A stretch of DNA of 64,000 bases from Alphaproteobacteria bacterium (lineage in GTDB: Bacteria > Pseudomonadota > Alphaproteobacteria > Sphingomonadales > Emcibacteraceae): the NCBI GenBank assembly GCA_020446675.1, contig JAGREE010000005.1, forward strand, positions 90,637 through 154,636, read 5' to 3'. A program made the position numbers and the translations under genes. The notes below the pieces were generated by a model that saw only the letters and a program-made list of their open reading frames with translations, had not been told where the DNA came from and did no database searches. This document shows positions 32,413 to 49,879 of this stretch, piece after piece (position 1 is the stretch's first letter; each line of letters opens with the position of its first letter).

Positions 32413-33512
32413 TGCCGATATTTGATATAGCCATTATCGGCGGTGGTATCATGGGGTGTGGGGCTGCCCTACGTCTTGCGGATGGTGGAATGCGTCCTAT
32501 CATCCTCGAACAGGGGGATATTGGGCAGGGGGCTTCCGGCGTCAATGCAGGGACCCTATCAATGCAGATTAAACGTGTAAAATTAATGCCTTACGCCATC
32601 CGCGGTCATGAAGAATGGCAGCATATGGGTGACGCGGTCGGTTTTCATAAAACAGGGGGCTACACGCTGGCCTTTAATGACCGCGAAGCCGAGCTTCTTC
32701 ATGACAGAATGAGTATGAAGAAAGAGGCCGGTGCCAATATCAGCTTTGTTTCGCCTAAGCAGCTAAATGAATTTGAACCGCATCTTGCCGGAAAGGTCAT
32801 TGCTGCCAGTTACTGCCCGGATGACGGGTATGCCAATTCATCATTGACCGGGCAATATTATAGAAAAAAAATTGATGAAAATGGCATCAATTTTATAGAA
32901 GGGTTTAAGGTTACCAATATCAGAAGCACATCCGAAGGATATGAAATCGCATCAAATGGCCGGACTGTGGTTGCCAGCCGCATTCTCATCGCTTGTGGCG
33001 GTTGGAGCAAACATATTGCTGCCATGCTTGGGGTTGAGCTTCCCATTAGAGCGCGGATCAATACTGTGTCCGTCACGGAACGTGCCCCGCGTCTAATAAG
33101 TGGTGTGATTGGCCACGCCACTGGTTTATTAACAATGAAGCAAAAAGAAAACGGCACTATTCTGATTGGTGGTGGATGGCAGGGGAAGGGTCGCCCGGAA
33201 GAGGGGCGCGGCCAGGTCAGTGTTGATAGTCTGGTGCCGAATTTGCAACTTGCAAAATTTGTGCTTCCAGCTTTATCCAATATTAGAATCGTGAGATCAT
33301 GGACCGGATTTGAAGCCAATGTGCCTGATTTTTATCCGCTTGCAGGGGCACTGCCAAACAGAGATAATGCCTTTATTCTTGGCTGCGTCCGGGGCGGCTT
33401 TACCATTGGTCCATATATTTCAAAACTGATGGGCGATTATATACTGGGAAAAGAGCCGGAAATGCCACTTTTTGACCCGGCACGAAAAATGGAAGAAGGA
33501 AAACTGATATGA
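32409..33512 (+). CDS. FAD-dependent oxidoreductase (DAO family; HcnC / OoxB / LhpB-like)
   Basis: IAIIGGGIMGCGAALRLA dinucleotide fold, 367 aa. ATGA overlaps on both sides. Confidence 0.82.
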   Translation: MMPIFDIAIIGGGIMGCGAALRLADGGMRPIILEQGDIGQGASGVNAGTLSMQIKRVKLMPYAIRGHEEWQHMGDAVGFHKTGGYTLAFNDREAELLHDRMSMKKEAGANISFVSPKQLNEFEPHLAGKVIAASYCPDDGYANSSLTGQYYRKKIDENGINFIEGFKVTNIRSTSEGYEIASNGRTVVASRILIACGGWSKHIAAMLGVELPIRARINTVSVTERAPRLISGVIGHATGLLTMKQKENGTILIGGGWQGKGRPEEGRGQVSVDSLVPNLQLAKFVLPALSNIRIVRSWTGFEANVPDFYPLAGALPNRDNAFILGCVRGGFTIGPYISKLMGDYILGKEPEMPLFDPARKMEEGKLI

Positions 33513-34279
33513 GCGAAAAAATACTTCAAAACCAAGTGGCTATTATCACGGGCGGCGGTACGGGGATCGGTGCGGCCTGCGCCGATATGTTCGCGGATCA
33601 TGGGGCTCATGTGGTGATTGCCGGGCGCAGTCTGCAAACCATAACAAGTGTTGCCAACCGCAATCGCGGCACGGCCATTGTCTGCGATGTGACAAAATTT
33701 GAAGATGTCCAGGGATTATTTTTAAAAGCGAAAATGATCACAGGCAAAGTGGATATACTGGTTAATAATGCCGGTGTTCCCGGGCCGGTTTCGCCGATCG
33801 CGGACGTCAATATTGATCAGTGGCGAAAATGCGCGGAAATAAACCTGTTCGGAGCCATGTACTGCATGCGTGAAGCGGCCCGCATCATGTGCGAACAGAA
33901 ATCAGGGTCAATTATAAATATGTCGTCTCTTATGGGAATAGAAGGATACCCGATGCGATCAGCCTACAGTGCGACAAAATTTGCGCTTGTCGGCATGACG
34001 GAAGCGGTGGCACGGGAGGTTGGACCATATAACGTAAGGGTTAATGCGCTTCTTCCCGGGGCGGTTTCCGGTGAAAATATGGACCGGATACTTGAACGCC
34101 GGGCTGAAGCAGAGGGAAGAAGCGTCGCAGAAATTGTAAAAGAAAATTATACCGATCCTGCGGCTCTTAAACGATGGGTCGCTCCGGAAGAGGTGGCAAA
34201 GGCAGCGCTTTTTTATGCGTCTGACGCATCTAGTGCAGTGACCGGGGATAAAATGAAAGTCTGTTGCGGACGATTTTAA
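33509..34279 (+). CDS. Short-chain dehydrogenase/reductase (SDR)
   Basis: TGGGTGIG cofactor motif, NNAG, and S...YSATK catalytic motif. Confidence 0.88.
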   Translation: MSEKILQNQVAIITGGGTGIGAACADMFADHGAHVVIAGRSLQTITSVANRNRGTAIVCDVTKFEDVQGLFLKAKMITGKVDILVNNAGVPGPVSPIADVNIDQWRKCAEINLFGAMYCMREAARIMCEQKSGSIINMSSLMGIEGYPMRSAYSATKFALVGMTEAVAREVGPYNVRVNALLPGAVSGENMDRILERRAEAEGRSVAEIVKENYTDPAALKRWVAPEEVAKAALFYASDASSAVTGDKMKVCCGRF

Positions 34280-34290
34280 AGGACAAAAAA

Positions 34291-35985
34291 ATGTCAGATA
34301 AGAACAAAATTTCAAGACGTGAATTTTCAAAAAGGGTTGCGGCCACAGCGGCGGGGATGACCATTGCAGCGGCCCCGGATATCACAAGGGCACAGCAAAT
34401 CGCAAAATCAACAAAACATAAAAATGTTTTGATGATCCTGATGGATCAGGAACGTGCCTGGGCAACACTTCCGGCGGGACTTGATCTTCCGGTTCGAAAG
34501 AAATTTGCATCAGAAGGGGTTTCATTTGAAAAATATAACATTGCCACATTATCCTGTGCACCGTCCCGTTCAGTTATTTATACCGGTCAGCATGTTCAGA
34601 AAACAACCATTTTTACCAATCCCGGCCTTGGGGAGGGAGACCCCTTCCTTGATGTAAGCAACACGCCAACGATAGGCCAGATGTTTAAAAAAATGGGCTA
34701 TAAAACGGCATACAAGGGTAAATGGCATTTATCTGTCGGCTTTGATGAGGATAATGTGGAAGCGCTTGTTGATTATGGGTTTGATGAATGGCATAAGGGT
34801 CAGGATACCGGCGGGGTGGTTTATGAAGGTGCGGAAAAAGACCGTGAAATACTTGAAAATGCCAGAGATTATCTGACCAGACAAAAGGATGAAAAGGAGC
34901 CCTGGTTCCTTGCCGTAAATTTTGTCAACCCACATGATATTATGTGGCTTGATGCCAATGGTAAACAGGCCGAAACCAGACTGCGGCCCGGACTGGTCAG
35001 CGATATGAGACCGGCGCAGGACATTTATCCTTATAATCATGATTTTGGCTTTAATGTTCCGGCCAATTTCTATGATGACTTGAGTAAAAAGCCGGAAGCA
35101 CAAATGGAATTTGTCAAGCTGGGGCAGTATTTTTATGGTGAACAGGATATCAGCGATGAAGAAGCCTGTAAAAATGTCTTGAATTATTATGCGGCCTGCC
35201 TTGTTGATTCAGATCGGGTGATTGGTGATCTGCTGGCAACTCTTGAGAAACTCGGCATGACTGATGATACTATTGTTATTTTAACATCTGATCATGGTGA
35301 AATGGGTGGGTCACACGGGCTTCGCCATAAGGGACCATTTATGTATAGAGAAAATATTAACGTACCGCTGGTAGTGCGGTATCCGGGCGGTCAGAAGGGC
35401 GTTAAATCAAACGCGATGATGAGTGCCATTGATTTTGCGCCGACCCTGATCGGTTTGGTGGGTGAAGATTATAGTAAAATTGAAAAGCGGCTTTTGGGAT
35501 ATGATTATTCAGGAATTATTCTTGGTAAAAAGGTTCGTGAGCGAAACGAGATATTGGTCAATTTTAGCAACACAACGCAGGGTAATTCGCGACTTGAAAA
35601 AATTCGGATGCTGCAAAAAGAAGCGGAGAAAAAAGGGGCGCCTGTCGTCCAATTTAAATTTCCGGATGACTTTATCCAGTTTGATACCAGAACTTTGGGC
35701 CGTGGTATTATTACAGAGCGGTATAAATTTTCGCGCTGGTTTGCCCCGGGGGATCATCATAAGCCGACAACTTGGCAGATGCTGGTGGGCAGAAATGATC
35801 TGGAGCTATATGATCTGGATGCTGATCCTTTAGAGATGAATAATCTTATCCATTTCCCTGAAACACACAGGGAGCTTATTTTAGCGTTAAATACAAGGCT
35901 TAATGATCTTATTGAACGTGAAGTGGGAATTGATCTGGGCGGCCATTTGCCGGGAAATCATAATATCTGGACATCAGAATTATAA
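34291..35985 (+). CDS. Tat-exported formylglycine-dependent sulfatase
   Basis: SRREFSKRVAATAAGM Tat motif, sulfatase signature SCAPSRSVIYTGQ (C-x-P-x-R), DQER and TSDHGE. The ATG at 34291 is preferred. Confidence 0.85.
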   Translation: MSDKNKISRREFSKRVAATAAGMTIAAAPDITRAQQIAKSTKHKNVLMILMDQERAWATLPAGLDLPVRKKFASEGVSFEKYNIATLSCAPSRSVIYTGQHVQKTTIFTNPGLGEGDPFLDVSNTPTIGQMFKKMGYKTAYKGKWHLSVGFDEDNVEALVDYGFDEWHKGQDTGGVVYEGAEKDREILENARDYLTRQKDEKEPWFLAVNFVNPHDIMWLDANGKQAETRLRPGLVSDMRPAQDIYPYNHDFGFNVPANFYDDLSKKPEAQMEFVKLGQYFYGEQDISDEEACKNVLNYYAACLVDSDRVIGDLLATLEKLGMTDDTIVILTSDHGEMGGSHGLRHKGPFMYRENINVPLVVRYPGGQKGVKSNAMMSAIDFAPTLIGLVGEDYSKIEKRLLGYDYSGIILGKKVRERNEILVNFSNTTQGNSRLEKIRMLQKEAEKKGAPVVQFKFPDDFIQFDTRTLGRGIITERYKFSRWFAPGDHHKPTTWQMLVGRNDLELYDLDADPLEMNNLIHFPETHRELILALNTRLNDLIEREVGIDLGGHLPGNHNIWTSEL

Positions 35986-36545: not shown

Positions 36546-37850
36546 ATGTCATTGGATTTGCCGGAAAATAAAACAATCGGCCTTTGGGGTATTGTCTTTA
36601 CCATCACGGGATTTGTCGTCGGTGTATCAATTTTCATTTTACCTGCAAATTTAATAGAAATTGCCGGTCCGGCCGTTCTCTTAGCTTACGCGATTGCCGG
36701 GGCAATGGCCATTGTGACCTGTTTTGCCACAGCACAAATTGGCACACTGATGCCCGCAGAGGGGGGGACTTATATCGCCATTTCAAAACTCATGTCCCCT
36801 TATTTTGGTTTTTTGGCCGTTTTTGTACTTCTCTGTGCCGTGGTGCTGGTTAATTCATTCGTTGGCTATGGCTTTGCCGATTATATTGTTTATTTTTTTC
36901 CGGACCTTAACAAAAATCTGGCCGCTACGACTGTGGTGTTATTTTTTGGTCTGGTTAATATTTCAGGATCTGACCTGGTTATTAAAATTCAGGGTGTTTT
37001 GGTTATTCTCTTTCTGATTATGCTCAGTATTTTTATCATCAGCGGACTGCCCCATTTTGAAATAAATAATTTAAAGCCTTTTATGCCGAATGGAATGGGG
37101 GCGGTGTTTGAGGCTGCGGCACTTGGGTATTTTTCCTTTGCGGGATTTATTTCCCTTCTTGAATTTGGCGGGGAAATAAAAAAACCGTCCGTTAATATTC
37201 CGATCGGACTGGGGATCAGTTTCATAATCGTTTTTGCCTCTTATGGTGGTGTATCACTGGTGTTAAGTGGGATTGATACGGTGGATAATTTTGAAGGAAT
37301 GGTAACACCGGTTCTTGAAGTGGCAAGAACGTTTCTGCCAGAATGGCTTATTTCCGCCTTGGTCTTATCAATTATAGCGGCCGCGGCAACCACAGTGAAC
37401 GGGCTTATTCTCGGCTATTCACGGGATATATTTGTCATTGCCGAAGCGAATATATTTCCCAAAATTTTTGCCAGGAGATCAAAAAAATTTAATACGCCCG
37501 TATACGCAATTATGGCCTATACATTGCTGAGTATAGCGGCCATTCAGACAGGAAGCGATATAACAAATTTTGCATTGGTTGCTGTTATGGGCCTGCTTAT
37601 ACAGCAGCTGTTTATTGCCATTAGTTTATTTCGTGTACCCGCTGTTATGGGAAGTGACTATGAAAAGGCCGAATTCAAACTTAAAAAATGGGTGATAAAT
37701 TTAGTATCAATATTGTTATTTGTCATTTCGGCCGGATTTATTGCAAAAATGGTTTCAGATAAGCCGGCGTTTGGTTTAATAATTTTGGCAGTGTTAGGGC
37801 TTGGCAGTCTCTATTACTACGGTATTCTTAATAAGAGGAATAAGGAATGA
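36546..37850 (+). CDS. APC-superfamily amino acid/polyamine permease
   Basis: 434 aa with about 12 TM segments and an N-terminal GLWGIVFTITGFVVGVSIF segment typical of the APC family. Confidence 0.82.
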   Translation: MSLDLPENKTIGLWGIVFTITGFVVGVSIFILPANLIEIAGPAVLLAYAIAGAMAIVTCFATAQIGTLMPAEGGTYIAISKLMSPYFGFLAVFVLLCAVVLVNSFVGYGFADYIVYFFPDLNKNLAATTVVLFFGLVNISGSDLVIKIQGVLVILFLIMLSIFIISGLPHFEINNLKPFMPNGMGAVFEAAALGYFSFAGFISLLEFGGEIKKPSVNIPIGLGISFIIVFASYGGVSLVLSGIDTVDNFEGMVTPVLEVARTFLPEWLISALVLSIIAAAATTVNGLILGYSRDIFVIAEANIFPKIFARRSKKFNTPVYAIMAYTLLSIAAIQTGSDITNFALVAVMGLLIQQLFIAISLFRVPAVMGSDYEKAEFKLKKWVINLVSILLFVISAGFIAKMVSDKPAFGLIILAVLGLGSLYYYGILNKRNKE

Positions 37851-38665
37851 TCCTGAGCAATAAAGAAAAGCAAATATACGCCCTTGATGGTGTTGTGAAA
37901 GTGAGCGATGCTTTTGACCCTAAATGGGTTGAATTTCTTAGAAACGCCACCGAAGATAATATGAATAATCCCGGTGAAATGGCGGAAGAATATGCAAAAG
38001 CTGAAAATTCCACCCGTTTTTTCGGGGATCAGTATATCTGGACAAGAAATAACGATTTTAAGAAATTTGTGTTTGAAAGTGAGGCGGCAAAGATTGCTGC
38101 CGAACTAATGGGATCATCCAAAATTAACATGTTTTTTGATCACCTGCTCGTTAAGGAACCGGGTTCTGTTGAGCCAACCCCCTGGCATCAGGATGGTCCA
38201 TACTGGAAAATTAAGGGCGAACAGATTTGTTCCATCTGGTTTGCGATGGACGATGTCAGTGAAGAAAATGGCGGTGTACGATATGTTAAAGGATCACACA
38301 GGACAGGCATCAGATACAGACCACAAAGCTTCAGCGGTAAGGGCCATGCCGAATATGGTGAAGCCGGGCTAGAGGTTATGCCTGATATTGACCAAACGGT
38401 GCCTGAAGATCAGATTATATGCTATGATCTCAAACCTGGTGATTGTCTTATTCACCATGCCAATATTATTCACGGCGCACGGGGAAATAAAAGTGCGGCA
38501 ACCCGGCGTCGTGGTTATGCAACCCGCTGGACAGGTGATGATGTGGTCTGGGACCCCAGAAAAGGAACGACTGAAGTGCTGAAAGACCCGGGATTAAAGC
38601 CTGGCGATCCATTGGATAGCGACTTATTCCCCGTTGTCTGGAGGAATAAGTCGTCTGATTGTTAA
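37847..38665 (+). CDS. Phytanoyl-CoA dioxygenase (PhyH) family Fe(II)/2OG oxygenase
   Basis: H-x-D in PWHQDGPYW and distal His in HHANIIHGA, with an RRRGYATRW tail. ATGA overlap with the permease stop. Confidence 0.82.
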   Translation: MILSNKEKQIYALDGVVKVSDAFDPKWVEFLRNATEDNMNNPGEMAEEYAKAENSTRFFGDQYIWTRNNDFKKFVFESEAAKIAAELMGSSKINMFFDHLLVKEPGSVEPTPWHQDGPYWKIKGEQICSIWFAMDDVSEENGGVRYVKGSHRTGIRYRPQSFSGKGHAEYGEAGLEVMPDIDQTVPEDQIICYDLKPGDCLIHHANIIHGARGNKSAATRRRGYATRWTGDDVVWDPRKGTTEVLKDPGLKPGDPLDSDLFPVVWRNKSSDC

Positions 38666-38675
38666 TTTTATGGTC

Positions 38676-39035
38676 TTACATTGGTGGATTGTTTTTTAGA
38701 TCTGCCGCTTTATCCTTCACGGCATCCACAGCATCTTCACCGGCATCTTTAACATCATCGGCCACTTCGCCGGCCTTGTCCATGGCGTCATCCGCCATTT
38801 CACCGGCTTTATCCATGGCTTCATCAGCCATTTCACCGGCCTTGTCGGCAACTTCATCCGCCTTTTGTTTGGCATCATTCATCATAGCATCGGCAGAGCT
38901 GGCAGTGCTTTCTGCTGTTGAGGCAGCCTTATTTTCCATACTACTGTTTGAATTGTTGTCATCGTTGCCACATGACGCTGTCATAAATACGACTGACGAT
39001 AATAGGATAGAATAAATTGTGTTTTTAGTGTTCAT
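38676..39035 (-). CDS. Acidic repeat lipoprotein (11-residue DKAGE-type repeats)
   Basis: GGAGG lies 9 nt upstream of the ATG. Lipobox VFMTASC. The mature part is D/E/A/K-rich with three 11-aa repeats. Confidence 0.75.
   Translation of the reverse strand: MNTKNTIYSILLSSVVFMTASCGNDDNNSNSSMENKAASTAESTASSADAMMNDAKQKADEVADKAGEMADEAMDKAGEMADDAMDKAGEVADDVKDAGEDAVDAVKDKAADLKNNPPM
38763..38861. repeat. Three tandem 33-nt units inside the lipoprotein gene
   Basis: The units are 38763-38795, 38796-38828 and 38829-38861 (CAYTTCRCCGGCYTTRTC...TCATCNGC). They encode ADxxxDKAGEx. Confidence 0.8.
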
Positions 39036-39135: not shown

Positions 39136-39714
39136 CTATTCATACACCAGTTTCCCGTTCTTAACCTTAACTTTTATTTTGGGTATTTTCTCACAGGCCT
39201 GAATAGCTTTTTTAAGTTCGAATAATACATTATTGATGTTATTCGATTGCACAGCAGAAAATAAGGCAATATTCAGGAAGGCAGTAGCAGGCTCAGTTTC
39301 TTCATCATTTCCATAAGTTAAAATACAAGGCACACCATTTTTCATTTGTTGGATTATAAATTTAGCCAGTTTCTTATTATTTTCTATTTTCTTTTTATCA
39401 AGTATAGTAAAACGAAAACCTATTCTTCCAGCAAAAGGTGGGGGAAAATTTTCATCTGCAAATTCAAGAAGAACACCCATTTTGTCGGGACGCCAGCTGT
39501 CATCAAGATCCGGTAAATTGCGCCAGGCGCAAAACCATTTTTGGCAAACATTTGGCCGTGAATTATATATTGAGCAACCACCATTCTTCATTAAGTTTGA
39601 ACATGTGAAATTCGGAGGTTTTACAAATTCAGTGCTGTTGATTGAAAGGATTGTACAGCAAACTGTACATTCACCACATTGACGGTCACTTACGAGATAT
39701 ACTTGCGCCGCCAT
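39136..39714 (-). CDS. YkgJ-family (CxxCxxCC, UPF0153) putative zinc/iron-sulfur protein
   Basis: N-terminal CGECTVCC followed by GGCSIYNSRPNVCQKWFC. It is divergent from the paralogue array and lies in the same AT-rich block. Confidence 0.72.
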   Translation of the reverse strand: MAAQVYLVSDRQCGECTVCCTILSINSTEFVKPPNFTCSNLMKNGGCSIYNSRPNVCQKWFCAWRNLPDLDDSWRPDKMGVLLEFADENFPPPFAGRIGFRFTILDKKKIENNKKLAKFIIQQMKNGVPCILTYGNDEETEPATAFLNIALFSAVQSNNINNVLFELKKAIQACEKIPKIKVKVKNGKLVYE

Positions 39715-39883: not shown

Positions 39884-41050
39884 ATGAAATTATTAAAAAC
39901 AGAAATTTCTGAAGTATCTGAAGATCGAAAACGTATAACAGGTTTTGTAGAATATAATGATGGTTATATTGATGAATACTGGTACGAATATCCTGCTCAT
40001 TTTGATATTACTGATTCTGGAAACCCATGGCTTGCGGCACTTCTTCCTATGGCTGCAACGATAAATGAAGACCTTGAAATATCTTTGCCTATTGATCAAA
40101 GGCTATTGGATGGCGCAAACGATATCATGAGGTTCTGGCATTCCTGGGATAAGAGTACATATATAGTAAAAATAAACGCAGAAAACATTGCAAATGTAGG
40201 AGATAATATTTCAAAAGATGCAGCTTCATTTTTTTCATCCGGCGTTGACGCTTTTTATACGGCATATAACAAACCCAGAGCCAATTATAAAATTCTCATT
40301 CATGGATTTGATCTTTCAATAAATAAAGAAACAGAATTTGAAACCCATTTAAAACGAATTTCAGATGTCGTTAAAAATCTGGGTGAGGAACTTGTTTTCG
40401 TTAAAACAAATATCAGACATACAAGATGGAAGCAAACCAGATGGCAGGCTATTTCACACGGTGCTGCACTTGCCTCAATTGGTTTATTATTTGAAAAGCA
40501 TTTTTCGGAAATATTTATACCCTCAAGTATGGGGGATTATTCGGATTTATATTGTTGGGGGTCTCATCCATTAACCGATCCCTTATATTCAACAAGTAAA
40601 ACAAATATTATCACTGATGGAGACGGTTTAAGTCGGCTAGATAAAATTAAGTTTCTGGCAGATTACGATTATGCCTTAAAGCACCTTCATGTTTGTATTC
40701 GTGGCAAGGATGGAACTGGTCAGGATGAAGTTAATTGCTCGCATTGTGAAAAATGTTATCGAACAATGATCGCGCTTGAACTCGCCAACTGTCTTGAGAA
40801 ATGTGACTTGTTTGATGTGGATAAATATAATTATGAAGAGATTCCTTATATGTTTGTAACTGATGCTTTTACGGCACCTGAGTACCATGAGATGGCTGAA
40901 GAGGCATTGATGCAGAATAAGCTGGAGCTTGCATCGGCAATCTATAAAGCAATAAGGCGTTCAAAACTGATTATCAGGCTTGGGTTTTTAAAGAAAGTTC
41001 CTTTTTTATGGTACATTCCCCATAAGATGATGGAAAATTCCATATATTAA
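39884..41050 (+). CDS. Uncharacterised 388-aa protein, paralogue 1 of 3 (possible PP-loop/QueC-like fold)
   Basis: Intact ORF that aligns without indels to the ORFs at 41126 and 42401. Invariant SSGVDA and C-x13-C-x2-C-x2-C motifs. Conservation with synonymous changes argues for a real gene. Confidence 0.85.
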   Translation: MKLLKTEISEVSEDRKRITGFVEYNDGYIDEYWYEYPAHFDITDSGNPWLAALLPMAATINEDLEISLPIDQRLLDGANDIMRFWHSWDKSTYIVKINAENIANVGDNISKDAASFFSSGVDAFYTAYNKPRANYKILIHGFDLSINKETEFETHLKRISDVVKNLGEELVFVKTNIRHTRWKQTRWQAISHGAALASIGLLFEKHFSEIFIPSSMGDYSDLYCWGSHPLTDPLYSTSKTNIITDGDGLSRLDKIKFLADYDYALKHLHVCIRGKDGTGQDEVNCSHCEKCYRTMIALELANCLEKCDLFDVDKYNYEEIPYMFVTDAFTAPEYHEMAEEALMQNKLELASAIYKAIRRSKLIIRLGFLKKVPFLWYIPHKMMENSIY

Positions 41051-41125
41051 TCTGGATATTAAAATGACCGTCATAAATTTAATTATAAACTTTGATTTAA
41101 ATAATAAAGTACAAGGAATGTCAGA

Positions 41126-42292
41126 ATGGAGTTGATAAGAACCGAAATTTCTGATGTTTCAGCGGATGTAAAGCGCATAACCGGTTTTGTCAGATATAAT
41201 GATGGAAATATAGATGAATATTGGTACGAATATCCATCTCATTTTGAAATTTCCGATACGGGTAACCCATGGCTTGCAGCCTTGCTGCCTATGGCAGCAA
41301 CTATTAACGAAGATCTGATAATATCCCTACCGTTGGATCAAAGACTAATCGATGGTGCCGAGAATATTTTAAGATTTTGGAATGCCTACGATGTAGGCAC
41401 ATCAATAATTTCAATTATACCGTCCGGTGGAGTATGCGTTTTAGATAATTCACCGAAAGATTCAGCAGCATTTTTCTCGTCCGGGGTTGATGCTTTTTAC
41501 ACTGCCTATAATAAACCCAGAGCAAAATATCAAATACTTATTCACGGCTTTGATCTGTCCATTGATAAGAGGGCAGAATTTGAACGACACCTAACGAGAA
41601 TATCCAAAATCAGTAAACAGATGGGTAAAGAACTTGTATCTGTTAGAACAAATATCCGGCAAACCCAGTGGAAGAAAACGCGTTGGCAGGTGGTATCACA
41701 TGGTGCAGCTCTTGCATCGATCGGACTATTATTTGAAAAATATTTCAGAGAAATATTTATTCCATCCAGTTTGAAGAATTTTAGAGATACTTACTGTTGG
41801 GGATCACATCCGGTGACCGACCCATTATTTTCAACAAGTAAATCAAATATAATCACAGATGGTGATGGCCTTAGTCGTTATGAGAAGGTTCAATTTATCA
41901 GCAATCATCAATTGGCTCTGGATAATCTCCATGTCTGTATTCGTGGACGTGATGGATCCGGTCAGGATGAAATAAATTGTTCACATTGTGAAAAATGCTA
42001 TCGAACGATGATTGCATTGGATTTGATAGGGGTACTGGAAAAAGCCAAACTTTTCGATTTAAGTAAGTATAATTATGATGAAATTAGCATGATTTTTCCT
42101 TCCAATGAATCTACTACAGGAAATTACGAAAAATTTATAAAAATTGCAGAGGAAAAAAACAGGCCTGAGATAGCAAATAATATTCGAAAATGTATTAAGC
42201 GATCCAAACTAATAAATTTATTATCTCCATTGGATAAAGTGCCTTTATTGTGGCGCATTCCATACAAAATGATGAATAATTCCATAGATTAA
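41126..42292 (+). CDS. Uncharacterised 388-aa protein, paralogue 2 of 3
   Basis: Same length and motif set as paralogue 1. AAGGA lies about 9 nt upstream of the ATG. It is the most divergent copy. Confidence 0.85.
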   Translation: MELIRTEISDVSADVKRITGFVRYNDGNIDEYWYEYPSHFEISDTGNPWLAALLPMAATINEDLIISLPLDQRLIDGAENILRFWNAYDVGTSIISIIPSGGVCVLDNSPKDSAAFFSSGVDAFYTAYNKPRAKYQILIHGFDLSIDKRAEFERHLTRISKISKQMGKELVSVRTNIRQTQWKKTRWQVVSHGAALASIGLLFEKYFREIFIPSSLKNFRDTYCWGSHPVTDPLFSTSKSNIITDGDGLSRYEKVQFISNHQLALDNLHVCIRGRDGSGQDEINCSHCEKCYRTMIALDLIGVLEKAKLFDLSKYNYDEISMIFPSNESTTGNYEKFIKIAEEKNRPEIANNIRKCIKRSKLINLLSPLDKVPLLWRIPYKMMNNSID

Positions 42293-42400
42293 TTAGTTGT
42301 ATTGAAATGCTGGAAAAATTTTAAAATTAATATTAAGTTAAATCTTATCCCAATAATTTTATCTAAAGTTATATAGAGAATTTTTTAAAAGAAATTTAAA

Positions 42401-43567
42401 ATGGAATTAATTAAAACCGAAATAGCAAATATATCAGAAGGGGTCAAACGTATCACCGGTTTTGTTAGATATGATGATGGTTATATTGATGAATACTGGT
42501 ACGAATATCCGGCCAATTTTGAAATTTCCAACACGGGCAATCCCTGGCTGGTCGCTTTACTTCCCATGGCGTCCACAATAAATGAAGATTTGGTAATTTC
42601 GCTTCCTGTGGATCAACGTCTTGTTGATGGAGCAAATAATATCCAGAGATTTTGGTCCGACTGGAAAATGGGAACGAATATTATAAAAATAAAAGCGGAT
42701 AATATTGCCAAAGTAAACAAAACACTACCTGATAATTCAGCATCGTTTTTTTCTTCGGGCGTTGATGCATTCTTTACCGCCTATAATAAACCAAGAGCAA
42801 AATATAAAATTCTTATTCACGGTTTTGATCTTTCAATATCTAAATCGGAAGAATTTCAGATGCATAGTGAGCGCATATCAAGAGTGGTTAAGGAACTTGG
42901 GCAGGACATTGTCATTGTAAGGACCAATATTCGCCAAACACGATGGGAGAAAACCAGGTGGCAGGCAATTTCTCATGGTGCTGCCTTGGCATCGATAGGG
43001 CTGTTGTTTGAAAATTATTTTGCTGAAATTTTTATCCCATCGAGTGTAAGCACATATTATCAGGTCGGTTGTTGGGGGTCACATCCTGTTACCGATCCGC
43101 TTTTTTCGACAAGCAGAACAAGTTTTATTGATGATGGTGATGGCTTAAACCGATTAGATAAAGTAAAATTTTTGGCAAATTATGATATTGCATTGAAAAA
43201 TCTTCATGTTTGTATTCGTGGTAAAGATGGAACTGGTCAGGATGAGGTTAACTGTTCCCACTGCGAAAAATGTTATCGTACAATGATCGCTTTGGATCTG
43301 GCAGGGTGTCTGGATAAATGCGTTCTATTTGATAAAGAAAAATATAACTATTCTGAAATACCCAATATTTATATAAATGATGTTGGTGAGAATCCGGAAT
43401 ACGAACCAATGGCCAAAGAAGCTTTGCGTCAGAATAATCATGAACTTGCTGCCGCTATTTACAAGGCTATTAGGCGCTCAAAATTGCTTATCAAATTAAA
43501 ACCGTTGGAAAAAATGCCTTTATTATGGCGGATACCATACAATATGCAGGAAAATTCGATTTATTGA
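42401..43567 (+). CDS. Uncharacterised 388-aa protein, paralogue 3 of 3
   Basis: Same length and motif set. It is closest to paralogue 1, for example in the shared C-terminal AIYKAIRRSKL. Confidence 0.85.
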   Translation: MELIKTEIANISEGVKRITGFVRYDDGYIDEYWYEYPANFEISNTGNPWLVALLPMASTINEDLVISLPVDQRLVDGANNIQRFWSDWKMGTNIIKIKADNIAKVNKTLPDNSASFFSSGVDAFFTAYNKPRAKYKILIHGFDLSISKSEEFQMHSERISRVVKELGQDIVIVRTNIRQTRWEKTRWQAISHGAALASIGLLFENYFAEIFIPSSVSTYYQVGCWGSHPVTDPLFSTSRTSFIDDGDGLNRLDKVKFLANYDIALKNLHVCIRGKDGTGQDEVNCSHCEKCYRTMIALDLAGCLDKCVLFDKEKYNYSEIPNIYINDVGENPEYEPMAKEALRQNNHELAAAIYKAIRRSKLLIKLKPLEKMPLLWRIPYNMQENSIY

Positions 43568-43570
43568 TGA

Positions 43571-43604
43571 GGTTCAGATAAATTGCTTTGGTTTATCTGA
43601 AACC
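43571..43604 (+). terminator. Hairpin directly after the third paralogue
   Basis: TTCAGATAAA-9 nt-TTTATCTGAA is a perfect 10-bp stem starting 4 nt after the stop. There is no T-run, so its terminator function is uncertain. Confidence 0.35.
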
Positions 43605-43667
43605 ATGCTACGTCGCGGCCTAATTTTCAATGTTGATCAGATATGTATGAATTCACAACTACACACA

Positions 43668-44825
43668 TTATCCGATTAATTTTTCACCGCAGGCAGGTTC
43701 GCAGATATAAATATCTTCTTTTAGGCCTGTTTTCACATGGTACTGCTGGTTTACTGCTTTTTTCACTTTATCTGTCAAATTTTTAGGGATCAGGGCAATC
43801 ACGCAGCCACCGAAGCCACCACCAGTCATCCTAACACCGCCTTTATCGCCAATTTCATTACTGATTATGTCCACCAGATAATCAATTTCCGGTGTCGTAA
43901 TTTCATAAAGGTCTTTCATTGATAAATGACTTTCTGCCATGAGCTTGGAAATAAGCGGAATATCATTTTTCTTAAGTGCATCGACCATTTTTAAAACCCG
44001 CTCATTTTCCCTAAAAACATGTTCTGCCCGTTTGGAAGCATCACTGGGCAGTTCATTTTTTTTCATCAGAAAAATATCAAGCGACAGATCGCGGAGTGAG
44101 TTAACACCAAACTTATTTGCCACCAGTTCACAGGATTTTCGCCGATCATTATATCCGCTTGTTGAAAGTTCCCTTTTTACATTGGAATTAATAATCATCA
44201 GCGCCAATGAGGGCGGGATCGGTACATGGCTAATTTGATGATCCAGACAGTCAATGAGCAGGGCACAGCTTTCCTCGCCACAAGCGGTGCTGAGCTGATC
44301 CATAATGCCGCAGGAAAGACCGACAAAATCACATTCGATCTGCTGGCCTATCTGCGATATTTCCACCTGTGAAAGTTGGATGTTATTAAGGTCACATAGG
44401 GTATTTAGTACCGCCACCTCCAGGGAAGCGGAGGAGCTAAGCCCGGCCCCTTTTGGAATAGTGCCGCTGATGGTCAGATCACATCCTTTTAGTGAATACC
44501 CCATGCTTTTAAGCATATAAAAAGCGCCGCGGATATAATTTTTCCATTGCTCATCGGTCGGAACAATGTCCTTTTTAAGGTCGAAATGATCCACATCACC
44601 ATCAAAATCAAGCGCGGTGACAGACACCTGGTTTTTATCATTCAATGACCCGGCAACACAGGTAAAAAAATTGATCGAAGCCGGGAGTACGAAACCATTA
44701 TTATAGTCAGTATGTTCCCCGATTAAATTAACCCGCCCCGGTGCAAGGATGACAACTGTTTTTCCCTGACCATGGTTTTTCTGATGGGCGCTGAGCACTT
44801 TTTCTATTAAATGGTCTTTGCTCAT
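43668..44825 (-). CDS. galK: Galactokinase
   Basis: Signature GRVNLIGEHTDYNNGFVLP and GHMP motif PKGAGLSSSASLEV. ATGA overlap with galT. Confidence 0.93.
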   Translation of the reverse strand: MSKDHLIEKVLSAHQKNHGQGKTVVILAPGRVNLIGEHTDYNNGFVLPASINFFTCVAGSLNDKNQVSVTALDFDGDVDHFDLKKDIVPTDEQWKNYIRGAFYMLKSMGYSLKGCDLTISGTIPKGAGLSSSASLEVAVLNTLCDLNNIQLSQVEISQIGQQIECDFVGLSCGIMDQLSTACGEESCALLIDCLDHQISHVPIPPSLALMIINSNVKRELSTSGYNDRRKSCELVANKFGVNSLRDLSLDIFLMKKNELPSDASKRAEHVFRENERVLKMVDALKKNDIPLISKLMAESHLSMKDLYEITTPEIDYLVDIISNEIGDKGGVRMTGGGFGGCVIALIPKNLTDKVKKAVNQQYHVKTGLKEDIYICEPACGEKLIG

Positions 44826-45865
44826 TCGCCCCTCAATTTATAATGAATGTCGGAAGTATCCCTCAGCATTTTTGCCGCCTGCTCGGGTGAAATGTCGCGC
44901 TGTGTTTCAGCCATCAGCTCATACCCGACCATAAATTTCTGGATTGTGGCGGACCTTAACAGTGGCGGATAAAAATGAGCGTGCATGATCCAATGTTCTG
45001 AGGGTTGCCCGTTTGCCGGGCGCCAGTGCCATCCCATGCTATAGGGGAAAGAACAGTTAAAAAGATTATCATAGCGCGTTGTCAGTTCCTTTAATATCCG
45101 GGCCAGTGACAATTTCTGTTCATCTGTTAAATCCGTCATATGGGAAATTGGGGTCCGTGGCAATAAAAGCATTTCAAAAGGCCAGGATGCCCAGTATGGC
45201 ACCAGTGCAACCCAGTCATCATTTATGCAGACAATGCGCTCCATAAGCTTAATTTCCTGCTTCACATAATCAAGCAGGAGGGGACTTTTAAGGGATTCAA
45301 AATAAGCTTTCTGCTCCCGGTCTTCGCGCGCCGCTTCATCGGGTAAAAAACTTCCCGCCCACACCTGACCATGGGGGTGCGGGTTTGAACAACCGTTAAT
45401 TTCGCCCTTATTTTCAAATATCTGAACCCAGGGATATTTTTGCTCTAGCTCGAAATAGAGTTTGCACCACGCATCAATTATTTTTTGAATACTATTGATA
45501 TCCAGTTCAGGCATGGTTTTGCTGTGATCCGGTGAATAGCAAATAACCTTGCAATTGCCGCTGACGGCTTCTGTCTGAAATAAACCGTCTTTCAGGTTTA
45601 TATCTGCCCCATTTTCTTCTATTGCGGCAAAATCATTATCAAAGATATAGACGTCCTTATACTCATCATTTACCAGGCCTGATGCCCGTATATTACCTGG
45701 ACATAGGTAGCATTCCTGATCATAGGACGGTTCCTGATGAAGTTTTTCTTTTTCAACTTTGCCTTTCCAAGGTCGGCTTGCGCGCTGCGGGGATACCAGA
45801 ACCCATTTGTTGCTAAGCGGGTTAAAACGCCTGTGTGGTTTGCTTTGCAGGGTCTCATGGCTCAT
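44822..45865 (-). CDS. galT: Galactose-1-phosphate uridylyltransferase
   Basis: HRRFNPLSNKWVLVSPQRASRPW, zinc CYLCPGN and active-site HPHGQVW. Confidence 0.93.
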   Translation of the reverse strand: MSHETLQSKPHRRFNPLSNKWVLVSPQRASRPWKGKVEKEKLHQEPSYDQECYLCPGNIRASGLVNDEYKDVYIFDNDFAAIEENGADINLKDGLFQTEAVSGNCKVICYSPDHSKTMPELDINSIQKIIDAWCKLYFELEQKYPWVQIFENKGEINGCSNPHPHGQVWAGSFLPDEAAREDREQKAYFESLKSPLLLDYVKQEIKLMERIVCINDDWVALVPYWASWPFEMLLLPRTPISHMTDLTDEQKLSLARILKELTTRYDNLFNCSFPYSMGWHWRPANGQPSEHWIMHAHFYPPLLRSATIQKFMVGYELMAETQRDISPEQAAKMLRDTSDIHYKLRGE

Positions 45866-45983
45866 TGGTGTGCTGGACTTTCATTATGGTTTTTAGAAAT
45901 TTAATCATGATATGGAATATTGTCAAAGGCGGCAACATATGAAATAGTCGGGTATAGAAAAAAAACGGGGAAGGGAAAGTCGT

Positions 45984-47546
45984 ATGCTGCTGGAAACTAT
46001 TGATATTACGATCGTTATTTCCTATGCCGTGATGATAATCATCATTGCACAGTATGTCAGCCGTGAAAAAGCCGGGCATGACAAAAATACCAAGGATTAT
46101 TTCCTGGCCGGTAAGTCGCTGCCCTGGTGGGCGATCGGGGCATCCCTGATAGCGGCCAATATATCGGCAGAACAGATTGTCGGGATGTCAGGGTCCGGCT
46201 ATGTCATCGGACTTGGTATTGCGTCATATGAGTGGACGGGGGCAATTACACTGCTGATTGTCGGAAAATACTTTCTGCCCATTTTTTTGCAGAACCAGAT
46301 CTATTCGATGCCCCAGTTCCTTGAAAAACGCTATGACGGGCGCGTGCGCTTTGTCATGGCGATTTTCTGGCTCGGGCTTTATATTTTCGTCAATCTGACA
46401 TCCATTTTGTGGCTTGGCGCGCTGGCGATCAACACTATCACCGGCATTGAAATAACAAGCGGCCTTTTTATCCTGGGGGGACTTGCCATAGCCTATTCCC
46501 TTTATGGCGGGCTTAAGGCTGTTGCCCTGACCGATATTATTCAGGTGGCGTTGCTGGTATTTGGCGGGCTGATGGTCTCCTCGGTTGCACTGGGGCAAAT
46601 CGGTGGGGATCAGGGCATCTGGGGCGGCTTTATTGAGCTGACCGAACGTCTGCCGGAAAAATTTGATATGATCCTTTCCTCCGATAGTCCCTATTATAAA
46701 GACCTGCCGGGAATTTCCGTGCTGATTGGCGGTATGTGGATGATGAACCTGTCCTATTGGGGGTTTAACCAATATGTGATCCAGCGGGCACTGGCGGCAA
46801 AATCAATCCATGAAGCGCGAAAAGGGATCGTGTTTGCCTGTTTTTTAAAAATACTGATGCCTGTAATTGTCGTTCTGCCGGGTATTGCTGCGGCACTTCT
46901 GGTCAATGATCTGAAAGCCCCCGATCAGGCCTATCCTGAAATGATGAAACTGCTGCCCACCGGGATTAAGGGATTGGTTTTTGCGGCGCTGATCGCGGCA
47001 ATTCTATCCTCTCTTGGGTCAATGATGAATTCCATATCGACCATATTTACCATGGATATTTATAAAACCATGCATAAAAATGTCAGTGAACATAAGCTTG
47101 TGACCATCGGCCGTATCACCGCGGCAACAGCGATGGTGATTGCCATTATTATTGCCAAACCGCTTTTGGGTAATTTTGGTCAGGCCTTTCAGTTTATTCA
47201 GGAATTTACCGGCTTCTTTACCCCCGGTATTGTTGTGATTTTCCTGCTTGGGCTTTTCTGGAAGCGGGCAACAGCCAATAGCGCGCTGGTTGCGGGGATC
47301 GGTTCCTTTGTTTTTTCCATTTTGTTAAGGCAGTATTGGCCGGAACTACCCTTCCTTGACCGGGTTGGGGTCGTTTTCCTGCTTTGTGGCGCATTGGCCA
47401 TTCTGCTTTCCTATATCATGCCGCACCATGATATGGATAATACGATTATAACTGAAAATGCGGAATATCAGGTTGATCAGTCTTTCAGGATTGGCAGTAT
47501 CTGTATCACGGCCATAATCGCCAGCCTTTATATTATTTGGTGGTGA
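45984..47546 (+). CDS. Sodium/sugar (SGLT-type) SSS-family symporter
   Basis: 520-aa polytopic ORF with DYFLAGKSLPWWAIGASLIAANISAEQ and NQYVIQRALAAKS. It is divergent from galTK. Confidence 0.85.
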   Translation: MLLETIDITIVISYAVMIIIIAQYVSREKAGHDKNTKDYFLAGKSLPWWAIGASLIAANISAEQIVGMSGSGYVIGLGIASYEWTGAITLLIVGKYFLPIFLQNQIYSMPQFLEKRYDGRVRFVMAIFWLGLYIFVNLTSILWLGALAINTITGIEITSGLFILGGLAIAYSLYGGLKAVALTDIIQVALLVFGGLMVSSVALGQIGGDQGIWGGFIELTERLPEKFDMILSSDSPYYKDLPGISVLIGGMWMMNLSYWGFNQYVIQRALAAKSIHEARKGIVFACFLKILMPVIVVLPGIAAALLVNDLKAPDQAYPEMMKLLPTGIKGLVFAALIAAILSSLGSMMNSISTIFTMDIYKTMHKNVSEHKLVTIGRITAATAMVIAIIIAKPLLGNFGQAFQFIQEFTGFFTPGIVVIFLLGLFWKRATANSALVAGIGSFVFSILLRQYWPELPFLDRVGVVFLLCGALAILLSYIMPHHDMDNTIITENAEYQVDQSFRIGSICITAIIASLYIIWW

Positions 47547-47572
47547 ATAAATCATAAAAAAGGGGAAATATT

Positions 47573-48721
47573 ATGCATTTTATAAAACTGTTACTGGCCC
47601 TTGGGGGGCTTATCGGCATAAGTCAAATAACAATGGCAAACGAACGGGGCGAAGCCGACCGCTGGAGCGTACAGAAAGCCAATGACTGGTATAAGGCGCA
47701 GCCATGGAGCGCCGGGTTTAACTATGCGCCGAGCTACGCCATTAACCAGCTTGAAATGTGGCAGGAAGACAGTTTCGACGATAAAATTATCGACCGGGAA
47801 CTTGGCTACGCCAAAGATATCGGCTTTAACATGGCGCGGGTGTTCCTTCATAACCTGCTTTGGGATCAGGACCGGAAAGGCTTCATAAAACGCATTAACA
47901 GATTTCTTGAAATCGCCGACAAAAATAACGTCAAAATCATGTTTGTGCTGTTTGATGATGTGTGGGACCCAACGCCGCATCTTGGTAAGCAGCGCGCGCC
48001 AATTCCACATACCCATAATTCCGGATGGGTTCAGGCACCGGGAAAAGATATATTGGGTGATCTGAACCGTCATGATGAACTGGAAGGCTATGTGAAAGGA
48101 ATCCTTACGGAATTCGGCAATGATCCAAGGGTCACGGTCTGGGATATTTATAATGAACCGGGCAATTTGAATGTGGAAGCATATGGCACAAAAGAGATTG
48201 ATAATAAAGAATTTTTCAGTCTTCAGCTTCTCAAAAAAATATTCGGATGGGCGCGGACGGCAAACCCTTCCCAACCACTTACCGCTGGTGTGTGGCGATC
48301 CCGTTTTGGTGCCTGGGTTGGTGAAAATCCGGACGATCCGGCCTCGAAACTTTATCATTTTATGCTGGAAAATTCGGACATTATTACCTTCCATTCCTAT
48401 GAAGGGCTAAAAAATGTTAAAAGTGTCGTGGGATCACTTCAGGCGCTTGGGCGACCACTGATCTGCACCGAATATATGGCGCGGCCCTACAGCACTTTTG
48501 AGGACATCATGCCCTATTTTGCAGCGGAGAAAATCGGGGCCATAAACTGGGGCTTTATTGCCGGCAAAAGCCAGACCAATTATCCTTGGGCGTCCTGGTC
48601 ACAGGGCTATAACGCAGAGCCGACACCATGGTTTCATGATATCCTCCGCGCCGATGGCAGCAAATACAGCGAAGAAGAAGTGCGCTTCATCAGCAATTTA
48701 ATCAAGCAGACCAATAAATGA
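47573..48721 (+). CDS. Secreted clan GH-A (GH5-like TIM-barrel) glycoside hydrolase
   Basis: Signal peptide. IYNEPGN matches the acid/base NEP motif of clan A. A later TEYM is a candidate nucleophile Glu. The exact family was not determined. Confidence 0.6.
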   Translation: MHFIKLLLALGGLIGISQITMANERGEADRWSVQKANDWYKAQPWSAGFNYAPSYAINQLEMWQEDSFDDKIIDRELGYAKDIGFNMARVFLHNLLWDQDRKGFIKRINRFLEIADKNNVKIMFVLFDDVWDPTPHLGKQRAPIPHTHNSGWVQAPGKDILGDLNRHDELEGYVKGILTEFGNDPRVTVWDIYNEPGNLNVEAYGTKEIDNKEFFSLQLLKKIFGWARTANPSQPLTAGVWRSRFGAWVGENPDDPASKLYHFMLENSDIITFHSYEGLKNVKSVVGSLQALGRPLICTEYMARPYSTFEDIMPYFAAEKIGAINWGFIAGKSQTNYPWASWSQGYNAEPTPWFHDILRADGSKYSEEEVRFISNLIKQTNK

Positions 48722-48730
48722 GAAAACAAA

Positions 48731-49879
48731 ATGAAAAAATTTCTAATCTGCCCGGCTATCGTCGGGGCCTACCTTTCACTGGTGTCCTGCATGACGAATG
48801 AAAATCCGGACCGTATCAGTGTAAAACAGTTTGGTGTGCTTGATGACGGGCGCGCCGTACAGGTTTATACCCTTAAAAACAGTGCAGGCAGCAGCATTGA
48901 TATTCTTGACCTTGGCGGCATCATTACAGCGATCAACGTGCCGGACCGTGACGGGACTTTGGCTGATATTGCCCTTGGCTTTGATAATCCGGAACAATAT
49001 CTGACCGACAGCCCCTATATGGGGGCACTGGTCGGGCGCTACGCCAACCGCATTGCCAAGGGGAAATTCACCCTTGACGGTAATGACTATAGTTTGGCGA
49101 TCAATAATATGGGCAATGCGCTTCATGGCGGCATTGTCGGCTTTGATAAAAAAATATGGCAAAGCGCGGCCAGCACCGCGGATGACGCGGCCATACTCAC
49201 CCTTTCTCTGGTCAGCCCCGATGGGGATGAGGGATACCCGGGTGCGTTATCCGCCACCGTCACCTACACCTTTGATGATCAGAACAGATTGACAATTTCC
49301 TATCACGCCACCACCGATAAGGCGACCGTGGTCAATTTAACCAACCACAGCTATTTTAACCTAAATGGTCATAATGCCGGGTCAATTCTGGATCATGTCA
49401 TGATGATTAATGCGGCCACCTATACCCCCGTTGATGAAACCCTGATCCCGACCAGGGAAATTTCGCCGGTAAAGGGCACCGCCTTTGATTTTGAAAACGC
49501 AAAACCCATTGGCCGCGATATCGGCGCGGGTGAGCAGCAAATTCAATATGGTCTGGGATATGATCATAACTGGGTGCTTGAAAAATCATCCCCCAATGAT
49601 TTTGAGCTTGCCGCGGCGGTTTATTCACCCAAAAGTGGCCGGATGATCAGTCTTTATACCGATCAGCCCGGATTACAGTTTTATACCGGCAATTTTCTGG
49701 ATGGCACGGTTACGGGCAAGGACAATACCCGCTATCAGAAGCGCGGGGCATTCTGCCTTGAAACCCAGCATTTCCCGGATAGTCCGAACCATCCAAACTT
49801 CCCGACCACGATACTAAGACCGGGGGAGACTTATGAAACCACCACAGTGTTTGAATTTGGCATACTTGAACAGGATTAA
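48731..49879 (+). CDS. galM: Aldose 1-epimerase (galactose mutarotase) with lipoprotein signal
   Basis: GRYANRIAKGKFTLDG, NALHGG, NLTNHSYFNL and CLETQHFPDSPN. The N-terminus has lipobox LSLVSC. Confidence 0.88.
   Translation: MKKFLICPAIVGAYLSLVSCMTNENPDRISVKQFGVLDDGRAVQVYTLKNSAGSSIDILDLGGIITAINVPDRDGTLADIALGFDNPEQYLTDSPYMGALVGRYANRIAKGKFTLDGNDYSLAINNMGNALHGGIVGFDKKIWQSAASTADDAAILTLSLVSPDGDEGYPGALSATVTYTFDDQNRLTISYHATTDKATVVNLTNHSYFNLNGHNAGSILDHVMMINAATYTPVDETLIPTREISPVKGTAFDFENAKPIGRDIGAGEQQIQYGLGYDHNWVLEKSSPNDFELAAAVYSPKSGRMISLYTDQPGLQFYTGNFLDGTVTGKDNTRYQKRGAFCLETQHFPDSPNHPNFPTTILRPGETYETTTVFEFGILEQD

Follow-up and report, generated by a model that had tools for sequence, protein, structure and literature searches.

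QueC, the 7-cyano-7-deazaguanine synthase of queuosine and 7-deazaguanine synthesis, is built on a scaffold that was recently found to be reused by Cap9 for protein-nucleobase conjugation. QueC proteins are ~220 amino acids (aa) in length, are recognized by the motifs SGGxDS, C(x)8CxxCxxC, YxQxHxxE, VPxRN, and YPDC, and have queD and queE as gene neighbors (PMC13329287). Enzymes of the QueC family use ATP to activate a carboxylate (PMC13279940, PMC13329287). The scaffold is also reused by QatC of the QatABCD anti-phage system, in which a QueC core is extended at both termini. QatC has a strictly conserved SGGxDS motif and a C(x)19CGxCxxRR site, does not contain the Tyr/Asp pair by which QueC binds its substrate, and catalyzes a reaction that is still unsettled (PMC13279940; PMC13329287). 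In its N-terminal extension, four parallel strands form a sheet that is accompanied by three helices, the backbone of H180 within its SHYWD motif reads adenine, and an S156A/S161A double mutant loses defence (PMC13279940). Here we describe three tandem paralogues of 388 aa encoded within a 64,000-nucleotide stretch of DNA (contig JAGREE010000005.1, positions 90,637 to 154,636; hereafter the window) from a metagenome-assembled genome (MAG) of the alphaproteobacterial family Emcibacteraceae. The paralogues belong to a large, unnamed family with a QueC/QatC-like core and a four-cysteine (Cys4) site, which has a canonical PP-loop outside the clade that includes the window and a probable link to the tailoring of glycans. 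An earlier note on this DNA, made from the sequence alone, had proposed that the proteins are divergent PP-loop enzymes resembling QueC, and the analysis described below supports that interpretation as largely right.

Results

The window paralogues are predicted to have a QueC/QatC-type core

Each of the window paralogues is publicly recorded as "hypothetical protein" (KDF58_01465-01475, in an alphaproteobacterial MAG), and scans of the three proteins against Pfam, NCBIfam, and PADLOC returned only noise (CCDC90-like, T4 Gp8, NpmA, and DpdF). A six-frame search of the whole window for S[GSA]GxD[SAT] within open reading frames (ORFs) longer than 150 aa found only the three paralogues and guaA, and the occurrence of the motif in three paralogues exceeds chance. 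As the earlier note had described, all three copies contain SSGVDA, IFIPSS, CWGSHP, and a C-x13-C-x2-C-x2-C cluster, and guaA contains SGGVDSSV (Table 1). The longer block FFSSGVDAF is also present, with the trivial difference that it starts at residue 116 rather than at residue 115.

We modeled a window protein with AlphaFold2 on an alignment of 54 family members (mean column identity 42%), which yielded a predicted local distance difference test score (pLDDT) of 93.8 and a predicted template modeling score (pTM) of 0.91. The model comprises an N-terminal domain of ~100 residues, a core of alternating strands and helices (~112-245), a coil that holds the four cysteines and runs into helix 289-300, and a C-terminal helical region. 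The S-S-G-V-D-A segment, which retains four of the six positions of S-G-G-x-D-S, sits at PP-loop geometry at the first strand-helix junction, where strand 112-116 is followed by helix 121-129. When the model was compared to the PDB using Foldseek, the sole match at E<=1e-3 was QatC (9y02_B; E 2.9e-5, prob 1.0, 406 columns), which is chain B of the QatB-QatC complex 9Y02. The top four matches among the predicted viral structures of BFVD were ThiI, QueC, an adenine alpha hydrolase, and again QueC (prob 0.96-1.0). The model and the Foldseek results agree, which supports a predicted fold of the adenine-nucleotide alpha-hydrolase (PP-loop) superfamily. Searches of the PDB by sequence, whether with a single protein or with the 54-sequence profile, gave no matches other than zinc fingers, CTCF, and BAK, all at E>0.2.

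The N-terminal domain was also modeled alone (pLDDT 91.7), and it features three long strands arranged as a beta-meander-like run and then two helices, with G46, W49, and P55 invariant in the 54-sequence alignment. This model had no match in the PDB at E<=1e-3, and QatC fell outside the top 50. A QatC-like N-terminal domain was rejected, since the domain modeled alone was without a significant PDB match. The secondary structure assigned by DSSP in both models indicates that the extra N-terminal domain anticipated by the earlier note is real and spans ~100-110 aa. The assignment of the proteins to the adenine-nucleotide alpha-hydrolase/QueC-like group stands because the predicted fold is not an unrelated one and the SSGVDA segment lies at a strand-to-helix junction. 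The description QueC-like thus holds for the superfamily fold and the Cys4 site, and it does not extend to membership in QueC or QatC proper.

We also compared the family to QatC by profile alignment with hhalign, using a QatC alignment built from the Pseudomonas aeruginosa protein WP_003160498.1 (supplement of PMC13279940). In the default local mode, only the PP-loop columns aligned, to FSGGMDSF of QatC (Prob 50%, E 1.7e-4), and the global mode gave a meaningless alignment of 7 columns. At low stringency, a colinear alignment of 315 columns was obtained, in which the added columns are of low posterior confidence. This alignment pairs HGFD with SHYWD, IPSS with VPENG, TDP...STSKT with LDP...STRTT, K254 with K311, R293 with R363, and Cys271/285/288/291 with C334/354/357/360, and the region of IFIPSS and CWGSHP lines up with VPxRN of QueC and VPENG of QatC. 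These residues may be equivalent in the two families, which would be consistent with the Foldseek result.

The resemblance to QueC raises the question of whether the family represents a divergent but genuine 7-cyano-7-deazaguanine synthase that functions in queuosine or 7-deazaguanine synthesis. The homologue P0036 is labeled as such in one JGI record, and seven of the 54 members show sub-threshold matches to the Pfam QueC model, which are confined to its zinc-site end (~positions 163-207 of 210). However, none of the 54 members reached the gathering threshold of PF06508, and the window proteins had no match. None of the 54 members and none of the three window copies contains any of the QueC catalytic motifs (YxQxHxxE, VPxRN, and Y(P)DC), and the proteins are ~170 aa longer than QueC. 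Furthermore, neither queD nor queE was found in 14 Pfam-annotated loci of the family, among the annotated window ORFs at 32.4-53.8 kb, or in the annotated recurrent neighbor clusters, and no Rfam match or riboswitch, including preQ1, was found near the paralogues. A genuine QueC is therefore most improbable, and the absence of the catalytic motifs in 54/54 members effectively refutes it.

Two other named groups were considered. DUF6395 (PF19932) showed weak matches in 17 of the 54 members, over the Cys4 segment and the next helices (~residues 248-366); one member, P0079, exceeded its gathering threshold (31.4 vs 25 bits), and the window proteins had no match. A literature search for DUF6395/PF19932 found nothing. 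Among NCBIfam models, including the TIGRFAM models, the 54 members had no match at E<=0.01 save for a spurious one to RecX, and a WbpG-type amidotransferase was rejected on that result.

The SSGVDA loop is confined to one clade of a large family

A word-indexed search recovered 364 homologues, nearly all of which are unnamed. An exhaustive profile search extended the family to 9,298 representatives of 50%-identity clusters at E<=1e-3, with 4,380 of them at E<=1e-30, and 483 loci were found when a single genome was scanned for each species. The hosts of these loci belong to the Acidobacteriota, Gemmatimonadota, Proteobacteria, Planctomycetota, Omnitrophota, and Nitrospirota, in addition to one Nitrosotalea MAG. 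We conclude that the family is large, unnamed, uncharacterized, and bacterial, and that it occurs mostly in soil and marine phyla.

Within the 54-sequence alignment, no substitution occurs at G120, D122, or Cys271/285/288/291, and S118 is almost invariant. Also invariant are G141 of the HGFD motif, in which F142 and D143 are nearly invariant, and D232 of the TDP motif. The consensus loop of this alignment is the canonical FFSGGVDSF. The earlier note had called the loop degenerate, a description that does not hold for the family, where the consensus is SGGVDS. In a set of 88 family ORFs, SGGxDS was found in 54, SGGxDA in nine, SSGxDA in nine, SAGxDS in seven, SSGxDS in three, TGGxDS in two, and STGxDS in one; therefore, positions 2 and 6 vary repeatedly in proteins that are otherwise conserved. 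The SSGxDA form was confined to the Emcibacteraceae/Kordiimonadaceae clade, to which the window copies belong. Every clade cluster-representative with a readable loop (19/19) showed S-[ST]-G-x-D-A, and the nearest outgroups showed SAGVDS or SSGVDS. Similarly, S123 is replaced by Ala in 11/11 clade members of alignment A1, and Ser is kept in 39/43 others. Judged from these sequences, SSGVDA appears to be a stepwise, lineage-specific, and tolerated derivative of canonical SGGVDS that keeps both invariant positions, and as such it would not be evidence of decay. The natural series from SGGVDS through S[AS]GVDS to S[ST]GxDA offers a ready test of what a PP-loop tolerates.

The history of the window copies bears on the same point. 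Pairwise, 29-34% of their residues differ, dS (synonymous divergence) is 2.5-3.0 and thus saturated, and dN/dS (the ratio of nonsynonymous to synonymous divergence) is 0.08-0.10, with values of 0.09-0.10 for copy 2 against the other copies. Orthologues of copy 1 (P0001 and P0002) occur in other MAGs, where they are adjoined by orthologues of copy 3 (P0005 and P0004), and copy 2 groups with P0010 as a separate lineage. The copies are consequently old duplicates under purifying selection rather than decaying genes.

An alternative explanation is that G119S and S123A abolish ATP binding in the clade and that its members are inactive pseudoenzymes, which would act as zinc-containing binding or scaffolding proteins. 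Consistent with this possibility, S123A is fixed in the clade, and other well-conserved positions have changed there as well (L128Y, P145S, P224C, and a variable H244). In addition, the QatC variant with both loop serines changed to Ala is inactive in vivo (PMC13279940). Yet the clade keeps S118, G120, D122, HGFD, K254, and all four cysteines, and SGGxDA and S[AST]GxDS have arisen independently in other lineages of the family. The identical loop has also persisted in three paralogues despite a dS of 2.5-3 and at a dN/dS of ~0.09. Active PP-loop enzymes that contain a residue other than Gly at position 2 exist, of which CysD is an example. We consider loss of activity to be quite unlikely.

Multiple copies are common beyond the window, with at least two family genes in 16 of 68 loci. 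Two proteins, P0241 (719 aa) and P0335 (799 aa), are two-copy fusions with a PP-loop and a Cys4 site in each half. By Rosetta-stone reasoning, the tandem copies and the two-copy fusions suggest that the proteins may act as dimers of like subunits, possibly as hetero-dimers of paralogues. An Anaerolineaceae contig (L057, 56-5485) holds an array of five consecutive family genes or gene fragments, two of which, at 197 and 299 aa, are short and possibly truncated or frameshifted. Another protein, P0274 (655 aa), carries a C-terminal domain resembling a class-I S-adenosylmethionine-dependent methyltransferase, with Methyltransf_31 above threshold and a weak match to nicotianamine synthase.

Family genes recur in polysaccharide loci

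To describe the gene context of the family, ORFs were called in 63 non-redundant loci and clustered by BLASTP, the cluster representatives were annotated with Pfam, and neighbors within 7 kb of the family gene were counted. The most frequent were GT2 glycosyltransferases (17/63 loci), ABC-2 (Wzm-type) permeases (15), GT4 glycosyltransferases (11), a divergent AsnB-like protein of 567-592 aa (11), polysaccharide pyruvyl transferases (8), polysaccharide deacetylases (7), and Wzz/tyrosine-kinase proteins (6). By raw count, 26 of the 63 loci contain polysaccharide genes within this distance, with at least two categories in 20 loci. The tightest neighbor is the AsnB-like gene, which lies within 2.5 kb in 10 loci.

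Particular gene orders were also shared. Co-directional Wzm, Wzt (with Wzt_C), family, and pyruvyl transferase genes were found in L087 (7661-12650) and L088 (7620-13562), and the order pyruvyl transferase, family gene, and Wzx was found in L089 (6580-10739). An AsnB-like gene, an AlaDh_PNT-like gene, and the family gene follow one another in L086, L091, and L016 and partly in L014. These gene orders recur in unrelated organisms and across phyla, and we consider a link between the family and glycans probable. At the family level, the gene context favors polysaccharide loci over queuosine synthesis or Qat defence.

Several features of these loci were observed in addition. L087-L089 represent a more distant clade, and their pyruvyl transferase is unusually long (459-461 aa). 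The module of AsnB-like gene, AlaDh_PNT-like gene (319-320 aa), and family gene lies within polysaccharide loci of five unrelated taxa (L091, 5273-9170; L086, 452-4497; L016, 204-4205; L004, 8001-13083; L014, 8205-11164 and 15043-16062). Its AsnB-like protein shows weak GATase_7 and Asn_synthase matches, and in Colwellia an ORF with an Octopine_DH domain replaces the AlaDH-like gene. The module hints at opine-type chemistry, i.e., that of N-carboxyalkyl amino acids.

The structural match to QatC raises a different possibility, in which the members are QatC/Cap9-like protein-modifying enzymes of anti-phage defence or another conflict system. They would adenylate a small acid and join it to a protein amine, or would modify a protein in some other way, and the paralogues would reflect diversification. 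The PDB gave no significant structural match besides QatC, which shares with the family an architecture of a QueC-like core, a Cys4 site followed by basic residues, and extensions at both termini. In Massilia, a homologue with an SAGVDS loop is flanked by a prophage integrase on one side and a holin/lysozyme cassette on the other (L001/L002, 5525-10577), an accessory-gene position that is usual for lysogenic-conversion or defence cargo. The low G+C content (GC) of the three window copies (0.36-0.37 vs 0.41-0.48) and the different copy numbers among MAGs (3, 2, and 1) would also suit such a role. However, the PADLOC QatC model (PDLC02214) had no match in the window proteins and touched only one of the 54 members (E 0.024). 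In the 14 Pfam-annotated loci, neither KAP NTPase (qatA, PF07693) nor TatD (qatD, PF01026) was called and no QatB-like gene was evident, and no ORF cluster accompanies the family universally in the 63 loci, as a small QatB-like partner would. One ORF cluster found at 54 loci was considered as a partner and rejected, since it appears to be an antisense shadow of the family gene, as judged from one representative (L006, 7979-8344, minus strand), whose position overlaps that gene. Furthermore, the N-terminal domain is unlike that of QatC, none of the 54 members starts with MG, and many members are co-directional with other genes inside polysaccharide operons. Taken together, these results make a conflict role unlikely.

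The window copies occupy a conserved site in Emcibacteraceae

In Emcibacteraceae, the family genes are found within a syntenic order of an amino-acid permease, a PhyH dioxygenase, a small lipoprotein, a YkgJ-like or GNAT gene, and one to three family copies, with three copies in the window, two in L007, and one in L010. Next after the family copies is a galK/galT and sugar-uptake cluster in the window and an autotransporter in L010. Because the permease and PhyH genes overlap by 4 nucleotides, they are probably a co-translated operon, and the pair is syntenic with a family gene in four Emcibacteraceae/Kordiimonadaceae loci. In the unrelated locus L006, TauD and PhyH genes lie beside the family gene. 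The YkgJ-like gene, which is divergent from the paralogue array, is kept in L007 and L011, and a GNAT gene is found instead in L010/L093.

GC is 0.36-0.37 in the three copies and in the YkgJ-like gene, compared to 0.41-0.48 in the flanks. Over positions 40001-44000, GC is 0.35-0.37 vs about 0.41-0.50 nearby, and GC at third codon positions is 0.28-0.32. The dip over the paralogue block could result from acquisition from elsewhere or from relaxed codon usage. Promoter-like and terminator-like sites in this region were no commoner than in shuffled sequence.

Table 1. Coordinates of the paralogues, their motifs, and neighboring features within the window
Feature	Position	Strand	Description
Paralogue 1	39884-41050	+	388 aa; N-terminal domain, PP-loop Rossmann-like core, Cys4 site, C-terminal helical region
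Paralogue 2	41126-42292	+	388 aa; 66% aa identity to copy 1
Paralogue 3	42401-43567	+	388 aa; 71% aa identity to copy 1
Copy 1 N-terminal domain (~residues 1-110)	39884-40213	+	Three long beta strands, two helices; conserved motif SGNPW..LP.A
Copy 1 SSGVDA PP-loop variant (residues 118-123)	40235-40252	+	Between strand 112-116 and helix 121-129
Copy 2 SSGVDA PP-loop variant (residues 118-123)	41477-41494	+	
Copy 3 SSGVDA PP-loop variant (residues 118-123)	42752-42769	+	
Copy 1 HGFD (residues 140-143)	40301-40312	+	End of second core strand
Copy 1 IFIPSS (210-215), CWGSHP loop (224-229), then TDP (231-233)	40511-40570	+	Strand is 207-213
Copy 1 Cys4 cluster (C271-x13-C285-x2-C288-x2-C291, then Y-R-T)	40694-40756	+	Predicted zinc site
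Copy 2 Cys4 cluster	41936-41998	+	
Copy 3 Cys4 cluster	43211-43273	+	
Upstream genes	32409-35985		DAO-type oxidoreductase, short-chain dehydrogenase/reductase (SDR), sulfatase
Permease/PhyH pair	36546-38665	+	Amino-acid permease and PhyH-family Fe(II)/2-oxoglutarate dioxygenase
Lipoprotein-like ORF	38676-39035	-	119 aa, acidic near-repeats (ADEVADKAGEMADEAMDKAGEMADDAMDKAGEVADDV); a 118-aa ORF overlaps on the opposite strand
YkgJ-like gene	39136-39714	-	192-aa Cys-rich protein; weak YkgJ-type CxxCxxCC zinc/iron-chelating match (PF03692, E 0.0036); GC 0.364
Downstream galactose-utilization cluster	43668-49879		galK, galT (-), sodium:solute symporter, 382-aa protein with no Pfam match, aldose 1-epimerase
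guaA	59811-61358		SGGVDSSV at 60483

Discussion

On balance, we favor the view that these proteins form a PP-loop family with a QueC/QatC-type core and a Cys4 zinc site, whose members would adenylate a carboxylate and form an amide on a glycan-related substrate. By analogy with characterized relatives, the PP-loop (S-S-G-V-D-A in the window copies) together with D122 would bind ATP-Mg, the carboxylate of the substrate would be adenylated with release of pyrophosphate, and an amine or ammonia would displace AMP to give an amide, while the Cys4 site would hold a structural zinc. The family-wide gene context suggests a glycan-related substrate. It might be a sugar with a carboxyl group, or a substituent with one, in an exopolysaccharide or O-antigen; uronic acids, pyruvyl ketals, and opine-type amino acids are examples. 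A substrate of the uronic-acid type is speculative but plausible, because bacterial polysaccharides are well known to contain uronic acids in amide or amino-acid amide form (PMC3210612). A literature search for PP-loop enzymes that act on uronic acids returned irrelevant papers only.

Several observations weigh against this proposal. No listed polysaccharide genes were found in 37 of the 63 loci, which places the association at ~40%, and the figure of 26/63 is a raw count from crude ORF calls, uncorrected for background. Polysaccharide genes are absent near the window copies and from all Emcibacteraceae loci, and for the window copies a glycan substrate is unsupported by their context. With respect to structure, the global TM-score to QatC is just 0.40 with a root-mean-square deviation of 10.8 A, and the profile similarity to QatC is marginal outside the PP-loop (Prob about 50%). 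The window copies carry S123A, and because the S156A/S161A variant of QatC loses defence (PMC13279940), reduced or lost ATP binding is possible in them. Lastly, the adjacent AsnB-like enzyme could itself form the amide, and the family would then have another role.

A broader proposal, which we regard as unlikely, is that the family constitutes a missing class of QatC-like Zn/PP-loop amide ligases that tailor glycans, from which QatC is an offshoot specialized for defence and within which the SSGVDA clade has shifted to a non-glycan substrate. Such ligases would adenylate carboxylates borne by sugars, including uronic acids and pyruvyl ketals, and would then couple them to ammonia, an amino acid, or an opine-type amino acid, with the opine-type donors supplied by the neighboring AlaDH-like or octopine-dehydrogenase-like enzymes. 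If the chemistry of the family is established, thousands of "hypothetical proteins" could receive names and functions, the enzymes behind the amide-linked substituents of bacterial polysaccharides might be recognized, and a tractable comparison would be available for the role of QatC.

Among described systems, WbpG/WbuX-type N-acetyl sugar amidotransferases, which are PP-loop enzymes of O-antigen loci, are the closest functional analogy for the polysaccharide context of the 26 loci: they resemble the family in having a PP-loop, cysteine motifs, a length of 300-400 aa, and a location in polysaccharide loci. They differ in that their CxxC(x)6CxC and YDC motifs occur in the reverse order, according to the description of this group as cluster 5 (PMC13329287). 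The DUF6395 model overlaps the family and differs in that it spans only the C-terminal part and is without functional information.

QueC (PF06508; PDB 3BL5) shares with the family the superfamily fold, the PP-loop at the first strand-helix junction, and, toward the C terminus, the zinc motif C-x(n)-C-x2-C-x2-C with a basic residue after it (in the family, a predicted zinc site), and the two may share the chemistry of ATP-dependent carboxylate activation. Unlike QueC, the family has extra N- and C-terminal regions, and its proteins are ~170 aa longer. QatC, which is the sole significant structural match, has in common with the family the PP-loop context F-S-G-G-x-D-S-F and, in the low-stringency alignment, H-x-[FW]-D after strand 2, a Pro after strand 4, a D-P...S-T-x-T loop, a conserved Lys, and C..C-x2-C-x2-C followed by Arg. 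Both are ~170-240 aa longer than QueC, with additions at both termini, and both are without the Tyr/Asp pair that QueC uses for 7-carboxy-7-deazaguanine (PMC13279940). The family is set apart from QatC by an N-terminal domain of another fold, by a cysteine spacing of x13 in the window (x8-x20 family-wide) vs x19 in QatC, and by the SSGVDA loop of the window clade in place of the strictly conserved SGGxDS of QatC. Taken together, we conclude that the family is a sister of QueC and QatC at the level of the fold and a member of neither.

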